32,875 nt of DNA from a virus (lineage: Duplodnaviria; Heunggongvirae; Uroviricota; Caudoviricetes). The translations under genes and the position numbers were made by a program. Position 1 is the stretch's first letter, and each line of letters begins with the position of its first letter. The DNA lies in IMG/VR virus record IMGVR_UViG_2859827302_000004. One strand, written 5' to 3'. Under the pieces are notes generated by a model, which made no database searches, was not told where the DNA came from, and saw nothing but the letters and a program-made list of their open reading frames with translations. Below are positions 332-10,296 of the stretch, piece after piece.

Positions 332-492
332 TTAATTCTGAGGTAAGGGCAAACTCATCTGATTGTTTCTTCTGTGTGAAGTTGGCAGTTCATGCCACGG
401 GTAGACTGGCCCCCTGAATCTCCAGACAACCAGTATCACTTAAATAAGTGATAGTCTTAATACTAGTTTTTAGACTAGTCATTGGAGTACAG

Positions 493-858
493 ATGATTGA
501 TGTCTTAGGGCCGGAGAAACGCAGACGGCGTACCACACAGGAAAAGATCGCAATTGTTCAGCAGAGCTTTGAACCGGGGATGACGGTCTCCCTCGTTGCC
601 CGGCAACATGGTGTAGCAGCCAGCCAGTTATTTCTCTGGCGTAAGCAATACCAGGAAGGAAGTCTTACTGCTGTGGCCGCCGGAGAACAGGTTGTTCCTG
701 CCTCTGAACTTGCTGCCGCCATGAAGCAGATTAAAGAACTCCAGCGCCTGCTCGGCAAGAAAACGATGGAAAATGAACTCCTCAAAGAAGCCGTTGAATA
801 TGGACGGGCAAAAAAGTGGATAGCGCACGCGCCCTTATTGCCCGGGGATGGGGAGTAA
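493..858 (+). CDS. insC: IS2 InsC (orfA, HTH)
   Basis: [56 protein letters not shown]... recognised as IS2 InsC; ATG at 493 lies inside track ORF 448-858. Confidence 0.9.
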
Positions 859-1721
859 GCTTAGTCAGCCGTTGTCTCCGGGTGTCGCGTGCGCAGTTGC
901 ACGTCATTCTCAGACGAACCGATGACTGGATGGATGGCCGCCGCAGTCGTCACACTGATGATACGGATGTGCTTCTCCGTATACACCATGTTATCGGAGA
1001 GCTGCCCACGTATGGTTATCGTCGGGTATGGGCGCTGCTTCGCAGACAGGCAGAACTTGATGGTATGCCTGCGATCAATGCCAAACGTGTTTACCGGATC
1101 ATGCGCCAGAATGCGCTGTTGCTTGAGCGAAAACCTGCTGTACCACCATCGAAACGGGCACATACAGGCAGAGTGGCCGTGAAAGAAAGCAATCAGCGAT
1201 GGTGCTCTGACGGGTTCGAGTTCTGCTGTGATAACGGAGAGAGACTGCGTGTCACGTTCGCGCTGGACTGCTGTGAGCGTGAGGCACTGCACTGGGCGGT
1301 GACTACCGGCGGCTTCAACAGTGAAACAGTACAGGACGTCATGCTGGGAGCGGTGGAACGCCGCTTCGGCAACGATCTTCCGTCGTCTCCAGTGGAGTGG
1401 CTGACGGATAATGGTTCATGCTACCGGGCTAATGAAACACGCCAGTTCGCCCGGATGTTGGGACTTGAACCGAAGAACACGGCGGTGCGGAGTCCGGAGA
1501 GTAACGGAATAGCAGAGAGCTTCGTGAAAACGATAAAGCGTGACTACATCAGTATCATGCCCAAACCAGACGGGTTAACGGCAGCAAAGAACCTTGCAGA
1601 GGCGTTCGAGCATTATAACGAATGGCATCCGCATAGTGCGCTGGGTTATCGCTCGCCACGGGAATATCTGCGGCAGCGGGCTTGTAATGGGTTAAGTGAT
1701 AACAGATGTCTGGAAATATAG
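816..1721 (+). CDS. insD: IS2 InsD reading frame (DDE transposase; made as InsCD by frameshift)
   Basis: 301-aa ORF overlapping insC, recognised as IS2 InsD. Confidence 0.9.
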
Positions 1722-1732
1722 GGGCAAATCCA

Positions 1733-1928: not shown

Positions 1929-2031
1929 AGCGACCTCTCTTATTGTAGTGCTTGCACTATTCTAGGTTGTATTCTCGGTAATGCTGCCAACTTACTGATT
2001 TAGTGTATGATGGTGATTTTAAGGTGCTTGC

Positions 2032-2307
2032 GTGGCTTCCATTTCCATCAGATGTCCTTCCTGCTCCGCTACTGAAGGCGTGGTGCGTAACGGCAAAAGC
2101 ACTGCCGGACATCAGCGCTATCTCTGCTCTCATTGCCGTAAAACATGGCAACTACAGTTCACTTACACCGCCTCTCAGCCCGGTACGCACCAGAAAATAA
2201 TTGATATGGCCATGAATGGCGTCGGATGTCGCGCCAGTGCACGCATTATGGGCGTTGGCCTCAACACGGTTTTACGTCACTTAAAAAACTCAGGCCGCAG
2301 TCGGTAA
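2032..2307 (+). CDS. insA: IS1 InsA
   Basis: GTG-initiated 91-aa ORF with the InsA zinc-finger/HTH sequence. Confidence 0.9.
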
Positions 2308-2729
2308 CCTCGCGCATACAACCGGGCAGTGATGTGATTGTCTGCGCTGAAATGGACGAACAGTGGGGCTACGTCGGTGCTAAATCACGTCAGCGCTGGC
2401 TGTTTTACGCGTATGACAGGATACGGAGGACGGTTGTGGCGCACGTCTTCGGTGAACGCACTCTGGCCACACTGGAGCGTCTTCTGAGCCTGCTGTCGGC
2501 CTTTGAGGTCGTGGTATGGATGACGGATGGCTGGCCGCTGTATGAATCACGCCTGAAGGGAAAGCTGCACGTTATCAGCAAGCGTTACACTCAGCGCATT
2601 GAGCGACATAATCTGAATCTGAGACAACATCTGGCAAGGCTGGGACGGAAGTCACTGTCGTTCTCAAAATCGGTGGAGCTGCATGACAAGGTCATCGGGC
2701 ATTATCTGAACATAAAACACTATCAGTAA
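2226..2729 (+). CDS. insB: IS1 InsB reading frame (expressed as InsAB' by -1 frameshift)
   Basis: 167-aa frame overlapping insA 3' end. Confidence 0.85.
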
Positions 2730-2802
2730 GTTGGAGTCATTACCAGTATTCTCTAAGATTTAAACATGACTTTCTCTATATAATGATTTTTAGCATTAGT
2801 TA

Positions 2803-2832
2803 ATAAACGAACGGCACTCTAAGGAGCGCCGT
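2803..2832 (-). terminator. Putative intrinsic terminator downstream of the 367-aa ORF
   Basis: Arms ACGGCACTC (2811-2819) and GAGCGCCGT (2824-2832) give a 9-bp stem with one G-U pair in the minus-strand RNA, followed on that strand by UCGUUUAUUA. Confidence 0.35.
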
Positions 2833-2840
2833 CAAAGATA

Positions 2841-3944
2841 TTATTCTGATGTCACTCTTTGCGAGTGAGCTATTTTTAAATCAGCGTTTCCTTCAAATAC
2901 TATATTCAACTCATAGTTAAGAGTTAGCTTGAATTTATCTGAGTCACTTTTGATATTCTCTGAAGTGACATTTACTAACTTATTATTATCATATTCTCTA
3001 ATAATTAATTTAGTGAAGTAGTTATCCTTTACCACAAGAGAAAATGGTTGATTAACAAATGGTAAGAAGTAAACCTTACGGGTACCGGATTCAGTAGTTA
3101 TGTTCATAGAGCCATCATCATTTTTTCTCATTAGTTCTCTGAGGTTGGGATTATCGAAAAGCATACGATTATATTGCTGAAAGATCTCTTTACTCATCAC
3201 AAGAACCAGTTTGCCAGCCAAGTCAGCAGATGATTTTATGTGATCAATCAACATATTGAAATCTTCTATTACGGTATGTTGCGAACAGCCAGTGCTAAAT
3301 AAATTTGAAAGTATTATTCTCTGGATGTCCTTGAGAATTAAGTCTGCTTGAATATCACCTTCATTGATATAAGGGATGGATTCTATTCCTTCGGCATACG
3401 GTTCTTTATCTATCTTAATAGATATCTTATGTTTTGTGAAACAATCGCTAGCCTGCTTAAAATCAATAGATTTGAAAAGTGAAAGAGGGAGCGTTTTCTT
3501 GATGCGTTTACGAAGATGTTCTGATGTTTTACGTGCAGTGCTATCTAGTCGATGTACATCTATGGCAGCATCCTGAAGTCTCATATCAAGATCTTTCTTT
3601 AGCATGTTAATATGCTCTTGAAGCAACTTTCTTAAGTTTTCTTTTTTTGTTTGGAGATCGTCCAATGTTAAAGTCAGCTTGATTTTAGTGTATTCGATGG
3701 AGTTACAAATTTTTGATAATACTCCAATGAATCGTTGCTTCTCACGATATGTTATATAGTTGTTTTCTATTGCTTCTTTTATTTCTTTTGATACGCTATC
3801 GTTCTTGTTAGAAAAAATTAATAATAGCTGAATCCATGATTGTTCCATATCAATAAATCCACAGTCAAAAACATTACTGTAAACTCTGCCCATCACCATG
3901 TCTGTTTTATCATAGTCACGTAAACGCCTTGCTAAACTATTCAT
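2841..3944 (-). CDS. Hypothetical protein, 367 aa, low-GC, apparently intact; distal gene of the cargo cassette
   Basis: Uninterrupted ORF; ATG directly abuts the upstream stop (TAGATG); GGAG about 13 nt upstream; no Walker A or other motif recognisable by eye. Confidence 0.75.
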   Translation of the reverse strand: MNSLARRLRDYDKTDMVMGRVYSNVFDCGFIDMEQSWIQLLLIFSNKNDSVSKEIKEAIENNYITYREKQRFIGVLSKICNSIEYTKIKLTLTLDDLQTKKENLRKLLQEHINMLKKDLDMRLQDAAIDVHRLDSTARKTSEHLRKRIKKTLPLSLFKSIDFKQASDCFTKHKISIKIDKEPYAEGIESIPYINEGDIQADLILKDIQRIILSNLFSTGCSQHTVIEDFNMLIDHIKSSADLAGKLVLVMSKEIFQQYNRMLFDNPNLRELMRKNDDGSMNITTESGTRKVYFLPFVNQPFSLVVKDNYFTKLIIREYDNNKLVNVTSENIKSDSDKFKLTLNYELNIVFEGNADLKIAHSQRVTSE

Positions 3945-4946
3945 CTACCCATTGTGCTCCATATTTTCAGACCATGTCCACAGGCAGATTCTAATTAATA
4001 TCTTGATTAGTTGGCTTGCATTATCAATTTCTTCAGTGGGAGTTTCATATCCACCGGTTTGGTCAATAAGTTTACCCTCTAAAATAAGTTTAATGTAATG
4101 TGTCATTAGTTTGTCAGAAGTATTGATTCTTGATGTCAGATAAAGACATGTGCATATACGCATGTCAGTCAACGCATTTATGATGGCAATATTGAACCAC
4201 TCTCTGTCTGAATTGAAGTTTAGTTTTTTGGATATGAAAAAAACCGGGTTAAAAAGCTGGCCTTTGTAACTGTATTTTTCTACCGAATGGCTGTCAATAT
4301 TCATTGAGTGCTGCCATCGGTTAATAAGATCGACGGCTGTATCAATAGTAGAAGGATCGCGAGTCTGTGTTGCATCAATAATCATCGATGGAAGTTCTTG
4401 TAGTTGCGTTTTGCAAAATAATTCAAATAAATCTGAATTCTCTGTATTGCAGAAACGAAAGTTTATGCTTTCTTGATATTGCTCCCAAACAGTGGTATAG
4501 GTTCTTAATATACGATTATAACGTGAACGAAGCGAGGCATTTAAGAGTGATTGGTTGTTTCGGAACCATTCTGTTAATATTGACCATTGTGAACGAGTAA
4601 TTCCCATATAGATACAAAGTTCATTGCTGATAAGATGTTTTCTATTATTGATAATACGCACTCCGCTCCAAAGACATAATTCAAAAAATCTTTCAGAAAG
4701 ATTAATTTTATCCATGGAATTATTTGATATTTTATAAACTTCATCTGAAAACTCATATTGAAAACTCCGTTCAAATAATTCTGTAGTGATCAGTAAGAAG
4801 TTATTGTTGGTATTATCATCTTGAAAAAAATACAAATCGCAGAGATTATTAAAGTTATTAATTAATGCAGAGATAGCATTGTCAAAACTAATGAGATCAG
4901 AATCCCGCAGATACATATACGTATCTGCTGTTATAGCCTGCATTGT
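3945..4946 (-). CDS. Hypothetical protein ORF (332 native codons); probably the C-terminal third of an IS-split ~670-aa gene
   Basis: Track ORF 3945-4979 begins inside IS600 (first 11 codons MVVSAIASTPH are IS-encoded); native frame is continuous with the ORF on the other side of IS600. Confidence 0.65.
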   Translation of the reverse strand, partial: TMQAITADTYMYLRDSDLISFDNAISALINNFNNLCDLYFFQDDNTNNNFLLITTELFERSFQYEFSDEVYKISNNSMDKINLSERFFELCLWSGVRIINNRKHLISNELCIYMGITRSQWSILTEWFRNNQSLLNASLRSRYNRILRTYTTVWEQYQESINFRFCNTENSDLFELFCKTQLQELPSMIIDATQTRDPSTIDTAVDLINRWQHSMNIDSHSVEKYSYKGQLFNPVFFISKKLNFNSDREWFNIAIINALTDMRICTCLYLTSRINTSDKLMTHYIKLILEGKLIDQTGGYETPTEEIDNASQLIKILIRICLWTWSENMEHNG

Positions 4947-4990
4947 GTGAGGTGTACTGGCAATAGCGGACACTACCATTTGTTCTTTTT

Positions 4991-5809
4991 TTAAGCAGCC
5001 ATCTGATGATATTTTTCCCTGAAGGCTGCCGGGGAGATATTCCCCAGACGAGAGTGACGACGCTGACGATTGTAGAAAATCTCAATGTATTCCCGTATTA
5101 CTGAGATGGCTTCATCCCGGTTATTAAAACGATAGTGGCTCAGGCTCTCATTTTTCAGCGTTCCCCAGAAGCTTTCCATCGGAGCGTTGTCGTAACAGTT
5201 ACCTTTACGCGACATTGATGTTTTCAGACCAGACTGCTCCTGTATGACCCGGTAATCGTATGCGCAGTACTGTGAACCTCGATCAGAGTGGTGGATTAGC
5301 CCGGCAGGTGGGCGCTGGCTCCTGAGCGCCATAAACAGGGCTTTACCTGTCAGCTCTTTTGTCATGCGCTCTCCCATGGCGTAGCCGACAATTTCGCACG
5401 TATAAACATCTTTGATGCCAGCGAGGTACAACCATCCCTCCTGAGTGGCAACATACGTCAGGTCCGCCACCCAGACCTGATTTGGTGCTGTAGGAGCGAA
5501 CGTCTGGTTCAGCAGATTTGGCGCAACTGGCAGATTGTGGTTCGGGTTCGTAGTCGCTCTGAACTTGCGTTTCTGCTTACAGCGTAGCCTTAGCTCCTTA
5601 CGAAGACGTGCCAGTCGGTCACGACCAACGATGATGCCATTCTCTGCCAGCTCCGTCTGGAGCCGCCGGGTTCCATATGTTTCGCGAGTGCGGATATGTG
5701 CCACCTTAATCTCCAGTTTTAGCCGCTCATCACTTTGTTTTCTGTCTGAGGGTTCATGCTGTACCCAGTTGTAATAACCGCTCCTGGATACACCAAATAC
5801 CTGACACAT
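4991..5809 (-). CDS. IS600 orfB (DDE transposase domain)
   Basis: 272-aa ORF in IS3-family orfA/orfB arrangement. Confidence 0.9.
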   Translation of the reverse strand: MCQVFGVSRSGYYNWVQHEPSDRKQSDERLKLEIKVAHIRTRETYGTRRLQTELAENGIIVGRDRLARLRKELRLRCKQKRKFRATTNPNHNLPVAPNLLNQTFAPTAPNQVWVADLTYVATQEGWLYLAGIKDVYTCEIVGYAMGERMTKELTGKALFMALRSQRPPAGLIHHSDRGSQYCAYDYRVIQEQSGLKTSMSRKGNCYDNAPMESFWGTLKNESLSHYRFNNRDEAISVIREYIEIFYNRQRRHSRLGNISPAAFREKYHQMAA

Positions 5810-5844
5810 CGCTTCAATGGGAAATTGTTGTCGCCATTGTTCGA

Positions 5845-6147
5845 TTAACGCGTATTTTTCAGCGACTCCTGTGCAAAATACGCTGTTGCTTTTTTTAATA
5901 TATCTCGCTCAAGGCGAGCTTCATTTAACGCCTTACGCAGTTGCAGAATTTCAGATTCCAGTTCAGCCACCGTGCGGGAACCAGGAGTACCGAGCCCTTT
6001 TCTGGCGGCGGTAACCCATTGTCCTAAAGTGCCTTCAGGAAGGGATAATCGGGAAGCGCCTTCACTGATCGAAAGTTGATTTTCAAGAACCGTTCTGACA
6101 GCTTCGGCTTTGAACTCTTTAGAGTAACGTTGGTTTTTTCTGCTCAT
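5845..6147 (-). CDS. IS600 orfA (HTH/leucine-zipper)
   Basis: 100-aa ORF MSRKNQRYSKEFKAEAVRTVLENQLSISEGASRLS... Confidence 0.9.
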   Translation of the reverse strand: MSRKNQRYSKEFKAEAVRTVLENQLSISEGASRLSLPEGTLGQWVTAARKGLGTPGSRTVAELESEILQLRKALNEARLERDILKKATAYFAQESLKNTR

Positions 6148-6211
6148 TATTAGCTCCTTCTGATGCCATTCTATTTCAGGAAGGAGTGTCCGTTAAACTC
6201 AGGCTACCTCA

Positions 6212-6950
6212 GTAAGACTTACGGAAAAATCTCCTCCTTTAATCGGAGCCCTATAAAAACATTGCTTAAGTATTTTTATTAATAAGCTGTCTGGTTTGAT
6301 ATTTTTAACGCTAAAAAGTATCTTACCCGTGGATTCTGTTTCTTTTGTACGATTATCACCAATGACAAATGACGCAAAATGATTCTTCTTTTTTAGTTGG
6401 TAATTAATAAGATTAAGAGTAAGTTGAAAAGGACGGTGATATAAACTTAACTCATCTTCCTTAGAATAACTGCTAGCCACAGATATGTATTCTCCTTTGT
6501 AATCGGCTTGCTTGATTTCTAAATTTGAATAGTTATGTTTTTGATAGATAGGGTATAACCTAAGCTTGGCTGAGATTTTGTTACAAATATGGGGCATTAC
6601 TATTTCGAAGGCAATGTATCGCTTTATAATTATTTGCCGTTTTACATCATCAAGAATTTCAAGACTCACGATAAAGAACCAAATAGAAAGAACTATGTTT
6701 ATCAAAAGCCATAATATGCTGATTAGACAAGCTATACCATAAAGATAACTTCCAAAGACAGTTTTAATTAGTACACTGAGAAGTATAAATCCTGATAAGA
6801 AAAGCCCGCTGAGTCCAGCAAGCATGAATCCTGAGTAACGCTGATAAGCAGTTTGGGCTATTTTTCTATCTGCCTTTTTTGGGAATAAGACACTTACTAA
6901 ACCTATAACAAGGGGGTATACAATACCAATAATTGTCAATTGGCCACTTA
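6212..6950 (-). pseudogene. Middle segment of the IS-split membrane-protein gene (TM helices 2-4 plus soluble region)
   Basis: Native part of track ORF 6199-7125; hydrophobic segments LTIIGIVYPLVIGLVSVLF, GFMLAGLSGLFLSGFILLSVLI, LYGIACLISILWLLINIVLSIWFFIVSL; bounded by IS1 (6951) and IS600 (6211). Confidence 0.7.
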
Positions 6951-7005
6951 GGTAATGCTGCCAACTTACTGATTTAGTGTATGATGGTGATTTTAAGGTG
7001 CTTGC

Positions 7006-7281
7006 GTGGCTTCCATTTCCATCAGATGTCCTTCCTGCTCCGCTACTGAAGGCGTGGTGCGTAACGGCAAAAGCACTGCCGGACATCAGCGCTATCTCTG
7101 CTCTCATTGCCGTAAAACATGGCAACTACAGTTCACTTACACCGCCTCTCAGCCCGGTACGCACCAGAAAATCATTGATATGGCCATGAATGGCGTCGGA
7201 TGTCGCGCCAGTGCACGCATTATGGGCGTTGGCCTCAACACGGTTTTCCGTCACTTAAAAAACTCAGGCCGCAGTCGGTAA
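7006..7281 (+). CDS. insA: IS1 InsA
   Basis: Same protein as the copy at 2032-2307 apart from one residue. Confidence 0.9.
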
Positions 7282-7703
7282 CCTCGCGCATACAACCGGG
7301 CAGTGATGTGATTGTCTGCGCTGAAATGGACGAACAGTGGGGCTACGTCGGTGCTAAATCACGTCAGCGCTGGCTGTTTTACGCGTATGACAGGATACGG
7401 AGGACGGTTGTGGCGCACGTCTTCGGTGAACGCACTCTGGCCACACTGGAGCGTCTTCTGAGCCTGCTGTCGGCCTTTGAGGTCGTGGTATGGATGACGG
7501 ATGGCTGGCCGCTGTATGAATCACGCCTGAAGGGAAAGCTGCACGTTATCAGCAAGCGTTACACTCAGCGCATTGAGCGACATAATCTGAATCTGAGACA
7601 ACATCTGGCAAGGCTGGGACGGAAGTCACTGTCGTTCTCAAAATCGGTGGAGCTGCATGACAAGGTCATCGGGCATTATCTGAACATAAAACACTATCAG
7701 TAA
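7200..7703 (+). CDS. insB: IS1 InsB reading frame
   Basis: Same protein as the copy at 2226-2729 apart from one residue. Confidence 0.85.
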
Positions 7704-7718
7704 GTTGGTGTCATTACC

Positions 7719-8004
7719 GGCCACTTAAAATGGTTGTTTGCCATTCGGTTAATGAATGCCTAAACGGGAAATAATGTAAAAGATTATTTTTTATAAATAA
7801 TTCGTTTAAATATCCAACATAAAGTAGTACAAATGAAAAAGCTGATATGCAAAGTACTGATTTAACCGGTGAGGATGTTAATCTTATGATGTTTTTTTCA
7901 ATAAAATTCCATTTTAAATTCGAATAAAATGGATTTTTAACCATTTTATTACGAACATAGTTCTTTGCTAAAATCTCTGTTGCACTTAAAAATTGTCCAA
8001 TCAT
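7719..8004 (-). pseudogene. N-terminal segment (95 codons, TM helix 1) of the IS-split membrane-protein gene
   Basis: ATG at 8002-8004; MIGQFLSATEILAKNYVRNK...VKSVLCISAFSFVLLYVGYL...; frame continues across the IS1 duplication into 6950-6212. Confidence 0.7.
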
Positions 8005-8334
8005 GAATTACTCTTCTATAAAGTGTGGGTCTACTAACTAAACTGGAACTTTTACTATTGAGTCATATTCCCTTGGACGGGATGGACTGTGAAGATTATA
8101 CTTGACTTCCTCTGTCATGTGGGAAAAACATCCGTATTATTGTTAGCATCTGGTTGATGCCCCAACCTCTGACATCTAGTGGGCTGATACATTATCTTTT
8201 GTTCTTACTGTCAGTGTAGAAGCACATCTCAAAAATAATATTTTTAAGAGATTTATTCTGTTTCTGCTATCCATTCCGGGATTTTTGCTTCAAGTTCAAG
8301 CTGCGTGGTAAAGCCGCTGGGTAATGACTCCAAC

Positions 8335-8712
8335 TTATTGATAGTGTTTTATGTTCAGATAATGCCCGATGACTTTGTCATGCAGCTCCACCGATTTTGA
8401 GAACGACAGCGACTTCCGTCCCAGCCGTGCCAGGTGCTGCCTCAGATTCAGGTTATGCCGCTCAATTCGCTGCGTATATCGCTTGCTGATTACGTGCAGC
8501 TTTCCCTTCAGGCGGGATTCATACAGTGGCCAGCCATCCGTCATCCATATCACCACGTCAAAGGGTGACAGCAAGCTCATAAGACGCCCCAGCGTCGCCA
8601 TAGTGCGTTCACCGAATACGTGCGCAACAACCGTCTTCCGGAGCCTGTCATACGCGTAAAACAGCCAGCGCTGGCGCGATTTAGCCCCGACGTATCCCCA
8701 CTGTTCGTCCAT
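8335..8712 (-). CDS. insB: IS1 InsB reading frame
   Basis: 125-aa track ORF with InsB sequence. Confidence 0.85.
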
Positions 8713-8756
8713 TTCCGCGCAGACGATGACGTCACTGCCCGGCTGTATGCGCGAGG

Positions 8757-9032
8757 TTACCGACTGCGGCCTGAGTTTTTTAAGTGACGTAAAATCGTGT
8801 TGAGGCTAACGCCCATAATGCGTGCAGTTGCCCGGCATCCAACGCCATTCATGGCCATATCAATAATTTTCTGGTGCGTACCGGGTTGAGAAGCGGTGTA
8901 AGTGAACTGCAGTTGCCATGTTTTACGGCAGTGAGAGCAGAGATAGCGCTGATGTCCGGCAGTGCTTTTGCCGTTACGCACCACCCCGTCAGTAGCTGAA
9001 CAGGAGGGACAGCTGATAGAAACAGAAGCCAC
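8757..9032 (-). CDS. insA: IS1 InsA
   Basis: [43 protein letters not shown]... Confidence 0.9.
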
Positions 9033-10296
9033 TGGAGCACCTCAAAAACACCATCATACACTAAATCAGTAAGTTGGCAGCATCACCAAGCCGCTGTTAT
9101 CAATGGTGTGCTCGGCTTTTGCAATAATCCAGTCCTGATAATCAATCTCGCTTTTAAAGCCTGTCACTGTGCCATGCATTTCGGGATAGAGTTCTGCACG
9201 ACCACGCGCCAGCGTGATGGAGAATGATGCGGCTCCGCGTTGTAGCTGCTGCCACTTTGCCGCCGCTGCGCGTCTTGCTGCCTGCTCGTTCTGATAAGTC
9301 TTGCGTAACACAAACACGTTGCCTTCCACACCTTCCATATAGTCGCCTTCCCGACTGCTGCTTTTCTCCTTTTTGGGTTTTGGCGGTTTGCGGCGTTTCA
9401 CGCTGACTTTTTTCTTTTTCCCGTAATTAAGATCAAGCCAGTAGGCGCGTACCCCCGTATACGCCTCGCGGTCAGCAATGCGGAACTGATGGCGATCGCC
9501 GCTGCTGCGTGTAATGGCGAACGAGGGCAACGGCTGCCCCTGTGCGTTCACGCCACCACCTGGCATGATGAATAACAGATTGCCGCTTTTTACCGTGGCG
9601 ATTGCTCCCAGCATTTCCGCCATGCGCGTAAGAAAGGACATGTCGCTTTCTTCGGTCTGGTCGGCGTGGTCGATTTCGATATCCATCAGCATTTCGCTGA
9701 TTTGCGGTTTCAGACCGTACCGATGAGCGATGGCGGATACCACACGCTCAACGGTCACATCATGCCAGGACACCTCACGTTTAACGTTAAATTCATCCCG
9801 AAAATCTGCGCTTCTGGCTGAAACAGTCAGCCTGTCCGGCGGTCCTTCGTGAGCGATTTCATCAACAATGTAAGTGCCTTTTTCTGTCAGCGGTTCCCCT
9901 TTCCAGCCAATGAGAACCGTCAGACGCGCGCCCCGTGGCGGTAGCTGCAACTGACCATCCGCATCATCCAGCGTGATGGTGAGCTGGTCCGCCTCAAATC
10001 CCCGGTTGTCGGTCAGTTACAGGCTCATCAGGCGCTCCGCCACGCCTGACAGCGTTTTACCCTCCGAGAGAATATCAAAATCCGGCATTTTCACGGGGGC
10101 CGTGCCCTGACTGAGCAATTGCATGGTGGTGTCGGTCATCTGCTCCCTCCCTGTGCGGCATGGTCGCATGTGCGTGCGGAGGGGGGGACTGCTTTTTGTT
10201 GTCGCCGTGGCGGGAGAACGGCGCAGGGGTGAGATTACGCGCGTGGTGGGTGATGATTGTTGCTGAATCATTTAACGGATACAAGGGGCTGAAGCT

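Follow-up and report, generated by a model that had tools for sequence, protein, structure and literature searches.

A Shigella prophage cargo gene of 1039 codons, very probably reduced to four fragments by IS1, IS600 and a nonsense codon

Introduction

Pseudogenes broken by insertion sequences (ISs) are ordinary in Shigella, where IS1, IS2 and IS600 have expanded. The locus described here, which is part of the window (the whole stretch of 32,875 nucleotides that was analysed, IMG/VR record IMGVR_UViG_2859827302_000004), resembles such cases in that a canonical IS1 (768 bp, 9-bp duplication) and a canonical IS600 (1264 bp, imperfect 3-bp duplication) lie inside coding sequence, that five IS copies occur within 9 kb, and that sister genomes show a stepwise build-up. 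It differs from them by an added nonsense codon, which hid the last third of the gene both from a sequence-only reading of this DNA and from the GenBank annotators.

The locus can also be compared with the cargo and defence hotspots of P2-like phages, old/tin and Z/fun (Rousset et al. 2022, PMC9122126; bioRxiv 10.1101/2024.10.15.618418; bioRxiv 10.64898/2026.02.27.708500). Similar to the cargo of these hotspots, the gene forms a one-gene, low-GC insert that has a terminator-like hairpin of its own and is flanked by conserved late genes of Peduoviridae, and the same junction is empty or filled with other cargo in related phages. However, the site in question, the junction of tail gene D with ogr, coincides with neither of these classical hotspots and is not mentioned in Rousset et al. 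(2022, PMC9122126), and the cargo of the window matches no known defence family. At the protein level, the described systems that offer a comparison are single-protein membrane-effector abortive infection, the 4TM effectors of CBASS and Pycsar, and the HK97-fold proteins, namely phage major capsid proteins, encapsulins and SaPI Ccm.

Results

The window matches Shigella dysenteriae, and the gene is an AT-rich cargo gene ('moron') of a P88/P2-like (Peduoviridae) prophage remnant, in which it separates tail gene D from ogr; the remnant adjoins ihfA-pheT in a Shigella dysenteriae-type genome. Its overall GC content is 33%, compared to 52% in the surroundings. The D-ogr junction of phage P88_4B11 is 42 bp long, and that of phage 500465-2 is occupied by an unrelated gene. 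A tblastn search against 50,697 phage records did not find the gene in any deposited phage genome. Upstream of the gene lies a non-coding region (8005-8319, minus strand, 39% GC) that is bounded by the 3' end of tail gene D (approximately 8253-8319, mapped from the intact E. coli locus L002); a promoter scan of this region returned weak 9-of-12 matches only, and no promoter is claimed. Tail gene D itself is interrupted by a third IS1 copy, a 91% variant (8320-9087, minus strand, duplication AAGCCGCTG), and a further IS1 lies between the cargo gene and ogr (1977-2744, plus strand); both are absent from the sister Shigella genomes. An IS2 of 1331 bp inside ogr (402-1732, plus strand, 5-bp duplication ACGGG) is common to them.

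We consider it very probable (roughly 0.93) that positions 2841-8004 on the minus strand are the remains of a single 1039-codon gene, present as four fragments separated by three inactivating lesions. The first fragment (7719-8004, minus strand) comprises codons 1-95 and the first base of codon 96, and encodes the predicted cytoplasmic N-terminus and the first transmembrane helix (TM1). Its ATG at 8002-8004 corresponds to the position at which the RefSeq CDSs begin in the intact E. coli loci L001 and L002, it gives a 100% alignment to positions 12286-11686 of L001, and its 96-aa product is an exact database match to a Shigella 'hypothetical protein' from 74 contigs. Inside codon 96 lies an IS1 (6951-7718, plus strand) with 99.7% full-length identity to annotated IS1 copies, ORFs at 7006-7281 and 7200-7703, and the ends GGTAATG...CATTACC. 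The sequence GGCCACTTA is found on both of its sides (6942-6950 and 7719-7727) and in single copy in the intact E. coli genes. The insertion disrupts the invariant Gln96, which is the first residue of the conserved membrane motif QLTIIGIVYP. The second fragment (6212-6950, minus strand, codons 96-339) shows 99.9% identity to L001 13016-12278, encodes the predicted TM2-TM4, the most conserved module, together with a small alpha/beta domain, and carries the substitution Q116P.

The next lesion is an IS600 (4948-6211, minus strand) inside codon 339 (ACA, Thr), which contains ORFs of 100 aa and 272 aa and shares 99.9% full-length identity with copies whose annotation reads 'IS3-like element IS600 family transposase'. 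In the minus sense it is preceded by TAC (6214-6212) and followed by CAC (4947-4945), triplets that agree at two of three positions and would be an imperfect 3-bp target duplication. The empty site has a single TAC, reading GTCTTAC followed by AATGCAGG both in the intact loci L001 and L002 and at seven sister Shigella loci, and a later point change in an already dead gene is the simplest, though here not provable, explanation of the mismatch. The third fragment (3945-4947, minus strand, codons 339/340-671) encodes the predicted helical middle region and ends at an amber TAG (3945-3947). The fourth, which corresponds to the 367-aa ORF 2841-3944 (minus strand) and was absent from the earlier three-piece count, encodes the C-terminal residues of the same protein, with codons 673-1039 and the natural stop TAA at 2841-2843; it carries C961R and, according to structural models, comprises a coiled coil and a C-terminal HK97-like fold. 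A terminator-like GC-rich hairpin (2810-2833, minus strand) follows 8 nt past the natural stop codon and, among the stops of the frame, is present only after this one.

The sequence-only reading had taken the ORFs 7714-8004, 6199-7125 and 3945-4979 to be pieces of a single gene into which IS1 and IS600 had inserted. All three are in the ORF list, their joins are identical to intact orthologues, and the coordinates given for both elements, including the 9-bp duplication and the TAC/CAC flanks, proved accurate. The 671-codon frame from ATG 8002-8004 was also reproduced: in silico excision of IS1, IS600 and one copy per duplication yielded 2016 nt, i.e. 671 codons and the TAG, with the junctions ...TILSG/QLTIIG... 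and ...FSVSLT/MQAIT.... This excised sequence aligns gap-free with uninterrupted E. coli genes across 2014 of its 2016 nt (99.9% identity), and the uninterrupted sequence is present in 5 of 5426 complete E. coli genomes at 98.9-99.9% identity. Neither of the two observations that the sequence-only reading had named as refuting was made: intact homologues read from the 6212 side into the 4946 side with no stop or new start, and the IS600 flanks are contiguous both in two intact copies from E. coli and in seven genomes of sister Shigella. By our own arithmetic, which uses about 7.5% stops per random codon at 33% GC, an open run of 671 codons would occur by chance with P ~1e-23, and chance in-frame joins are ruled out by the 99.9% gap-free match to intact genes.

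While the open frame thus stood, the size of about 671 codons and the 3' limit at TAG 3945-3947 that had been assigned to the gene did not, since codon 672 at this position is TGG (Trp672) in intact copies and the TAG is a mutation of it. In intact E. coli copies the gene is 3120 nt long (1039 aa) and annotated as one CDS, and uninterrupted CDSs of this length match the excised sequence at 99.9% and 98.9% identity. One intact 3120-nt allele lies at NZ_CP128578.1 2480435-2483554, and WP_264716223 and WP_049143931 are accessions of intact alleles. Comparison with the closest intact orthologue (3120 nt versus 3120 nt) revealed six substitutions and 0 indels, with all fragments collinear and in frame. 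It could be argued that the ancestral gene did end after about 671 codons and that ORF 2841-3944 is a separate, translationally coupled gene (TAG-ATG), as an ATG directly follows the TAG in the window and GenBank lists the 367-aa product as a protein of its own in S. dysenteriae. This is, however, highly improbable given that the 99.9%-identical intact copies have TGG at this position within one 1039-aa CDS, that every full-length homologue, down to 21-27% identity, covers both parts in one polypeptide, and that a helix of the AF2 model runs through residue 672. Nor is there a GC shift at the boundary: all four fragments have a GC content of 27-34%, compared to 51-54% in the flanks, and it is uniform across codon 672. 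A single gene is also in line with the homologues found (183 in the first search and 501 clusters at E<=1e-3 in an exhaustive search), which are full-length proteins of 1030-1150 aa that match the profile end to end in one stretch.

The sister Shigella genomes L015-L022 carry an IS1 at the same site, and seven sister loci combine this IS1 with the same TAG and an empty IS600 site. This comparison shows that IS1 in codon 96 and the TGG-to-TAG change at codon 672 are common to sister Shigella, and that the IS600 in codon 339 arrived last and is lineage-specific, because these genomes have the first two lesions and an empty IS600 site. All three lesions, IS1 in codon 96, IS600 in codon 339 and W672*, are incompatible with a full-length product, and nothing functional can come from the gene copy in the window. 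The possibility that the TAG is read through or suppressed was discarded, since every TAG-bearing genome is already cut upstream by IS1. The six substitutions relative to the closest intact copy are all non-synonymous, with Q116P at a family-invariant and C961R at a nearly invariant column. Between the two intact E. coli alleles, 17 non-synonymous and 9 synonymous changes were counted, and dN/dS is not low.

The intact protein is predicted to start with a cytoplasmic N-terminus followed by four transmembrane helices, and four hydrophobic segments were found, all inside residues 45-196. The large cytoplasmic portion is predicted to consist of a small alpha/beta domain, a helical-repeat region and a coiled coil, and to end in a domain of approximately 210 residues with the HK97 capsid/encapsulin fold. 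In the AF2 models (pLDDT 80.8 and 83.9) this C-terminal domain shows the hairpin, spine helix, A domain and P domain of the HK97 fold, and in a Foldseek search against viral models the matches were major capsid proteins (best E 1.9e-5). TM2-4 stands out as the most strongly conserved part of the protein, with 63% identity between clades compared to 16-24% elsewhere; the invariant TM motif comprises Q96, P105, Q116 and the stretch S132-G141. Unlike in the known HK97-fold proteins, to which the C-terminal domain has no sequence similarity, the domain follows some 830 residues of the same polypeptide, a predicted 4-TM anchor among them, and the gene stands alone, unaccompanied by portal, protease, scaffold or cargo genes; the fold is known here from models.

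Profile searches with the intact protein gave no match at E<=1 in Pfam and NCBIfam, including the MFS and nucleotidyltransferase families, 0 families at E<=1 in PADLOC-DB v2, nothing at E<=1 among PDB sequences, and one chance-level match only (E 0.015) in PHROGs. The literature on the family accessions, on D-ogr cargo and on HK97-fold defence proteins yielded no characterisation, and no description of the fused membrane-module and HK97-fold architecture was found in the searchable literature. The family has a patchy distribution in Gammaproteobacteria and one Desulforhopalus, and its carriers are prophages, P4-primase islands and plasmids, with 377 plasmid records that are mostly conjugative. 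The homologues are solitary genes. In a raw neighbour listing, some stand beside an HEC-04-like ATPase, PDC-M04A/DUF3800, TIR proteins, PDC-S15, a type I R-M system or PDC-S02, and at many of the 18 species-level loci the adjacent genes are ordinary housekeeping genes. A conserved partner or cargo gene of the encapsulin kind was not present among the family loci examined.

Discussion

The architecture and settings of the intact family make it a candidate for a stand-alone anti-phage (or anti-mobile-element) protein, a tentative assignment for which we would put the odds somewhat below even. It shares with single-protein membrane-effector abortive infection and with the CBASS/Pycsar 4TM effectors a conserved multi-TM module joined to a variable cytoplasmic portion as well as the occurrence in mobile-element or candidate defence-island settings; however, the family has no homology to any PADLOC model, and an effector role of its TM module is conjectural. 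Further points that weigh against a defence role are the absence of the gene from deposited phage genomes, its rarity among complete E. coli genomes (5 of 5426), the dN/dS of the intact alleles, which is not low, and the ordinary neighbours at many loci. A specific capsid-sensing mechanism is held with less confidence than the defence assignment as such. The capsid-like end in the cytoplasm, which evolves fast, would interact with capsid proteins of phages or with procapsids during their assembly, and the conserved 4-TM module would be the effector, acting through membrane permeabilisation (abortive infection) or through sequestration of capsid subunits at the membrane. That this family of solitary proteins of about 1040-1150 aa, with a conserved 4-TM module and a diverging HK97 fold, constitutes an immunity 'capsid mimic' that detects or poisons phage capsids during their assembly and relays a signal to an effector in the membrane is conceivable but doubtful.

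The intact gene might instead serve the mobile element itself, in superinfection or entry exclusion at the membrane, in plasmid or prophage maintenance, or as a domesticated, capsid-derived protein that forms a membrane-tethered shell, a function that overlaps with defence and is not separable from it in silico. The carriage on prophages, P4-primase islands and mostly conjugative plasmids would fit such a role, as would the combination of a membrane anchor with the HK97 fold, which self-assembles in capsids and encapsulins. Nevertheless, we regard it as unlikely, because the gene also occurs in chromosomal islets without mobile-element genes nearby, such as between phn and nrdD in Serratia, and lacks the conserved partner or cargo gene that encapsulins have. 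Far less probable still is a transporter or metabolic lysogenic-conversion gene rather than an immunity gene, as implied by the RefSeq and UniRef names 'MFS transporter' and 'nicotinate-nucleotide adenylyltransferase', even though the membrane domain is the most conserved part of the protein. An MFS transporter is expected to have an MFS Pfam domain and about 12 transmembrane helices, whereas here neither Pfam nor NCBIfam gave a match, the hydrophobic helices number four instead of twelve, and about 850 of the 1039 residues are modelled in soluble helical or capsid-like domains. The name 'MFS transporter' in the databases has no support, and other annotators use 'hypothetical' for the same family.

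With regard to the candidate defence function, an intact allele from E. coli, S. sonnei or S. boydii would offer a cheap and well-defined phage-resistance candidate that has no recognised domain and belongs to a family with seemingly defence-rich neighbourhoods. Hundreds of plasmids and prophages carry the intact gene wrongly labelled as 'MFS transporter' or 'hypothetical'. In Shigella the locus represents a dated series of IS hits during genome decay. Exact matches to the fragment proteins come from S. dysenteriae entries, and the annotation of three to four 'hypothetical proteins' (367, 344 and 96 aa) in this species can be corrected to pieces of one pseudogene.

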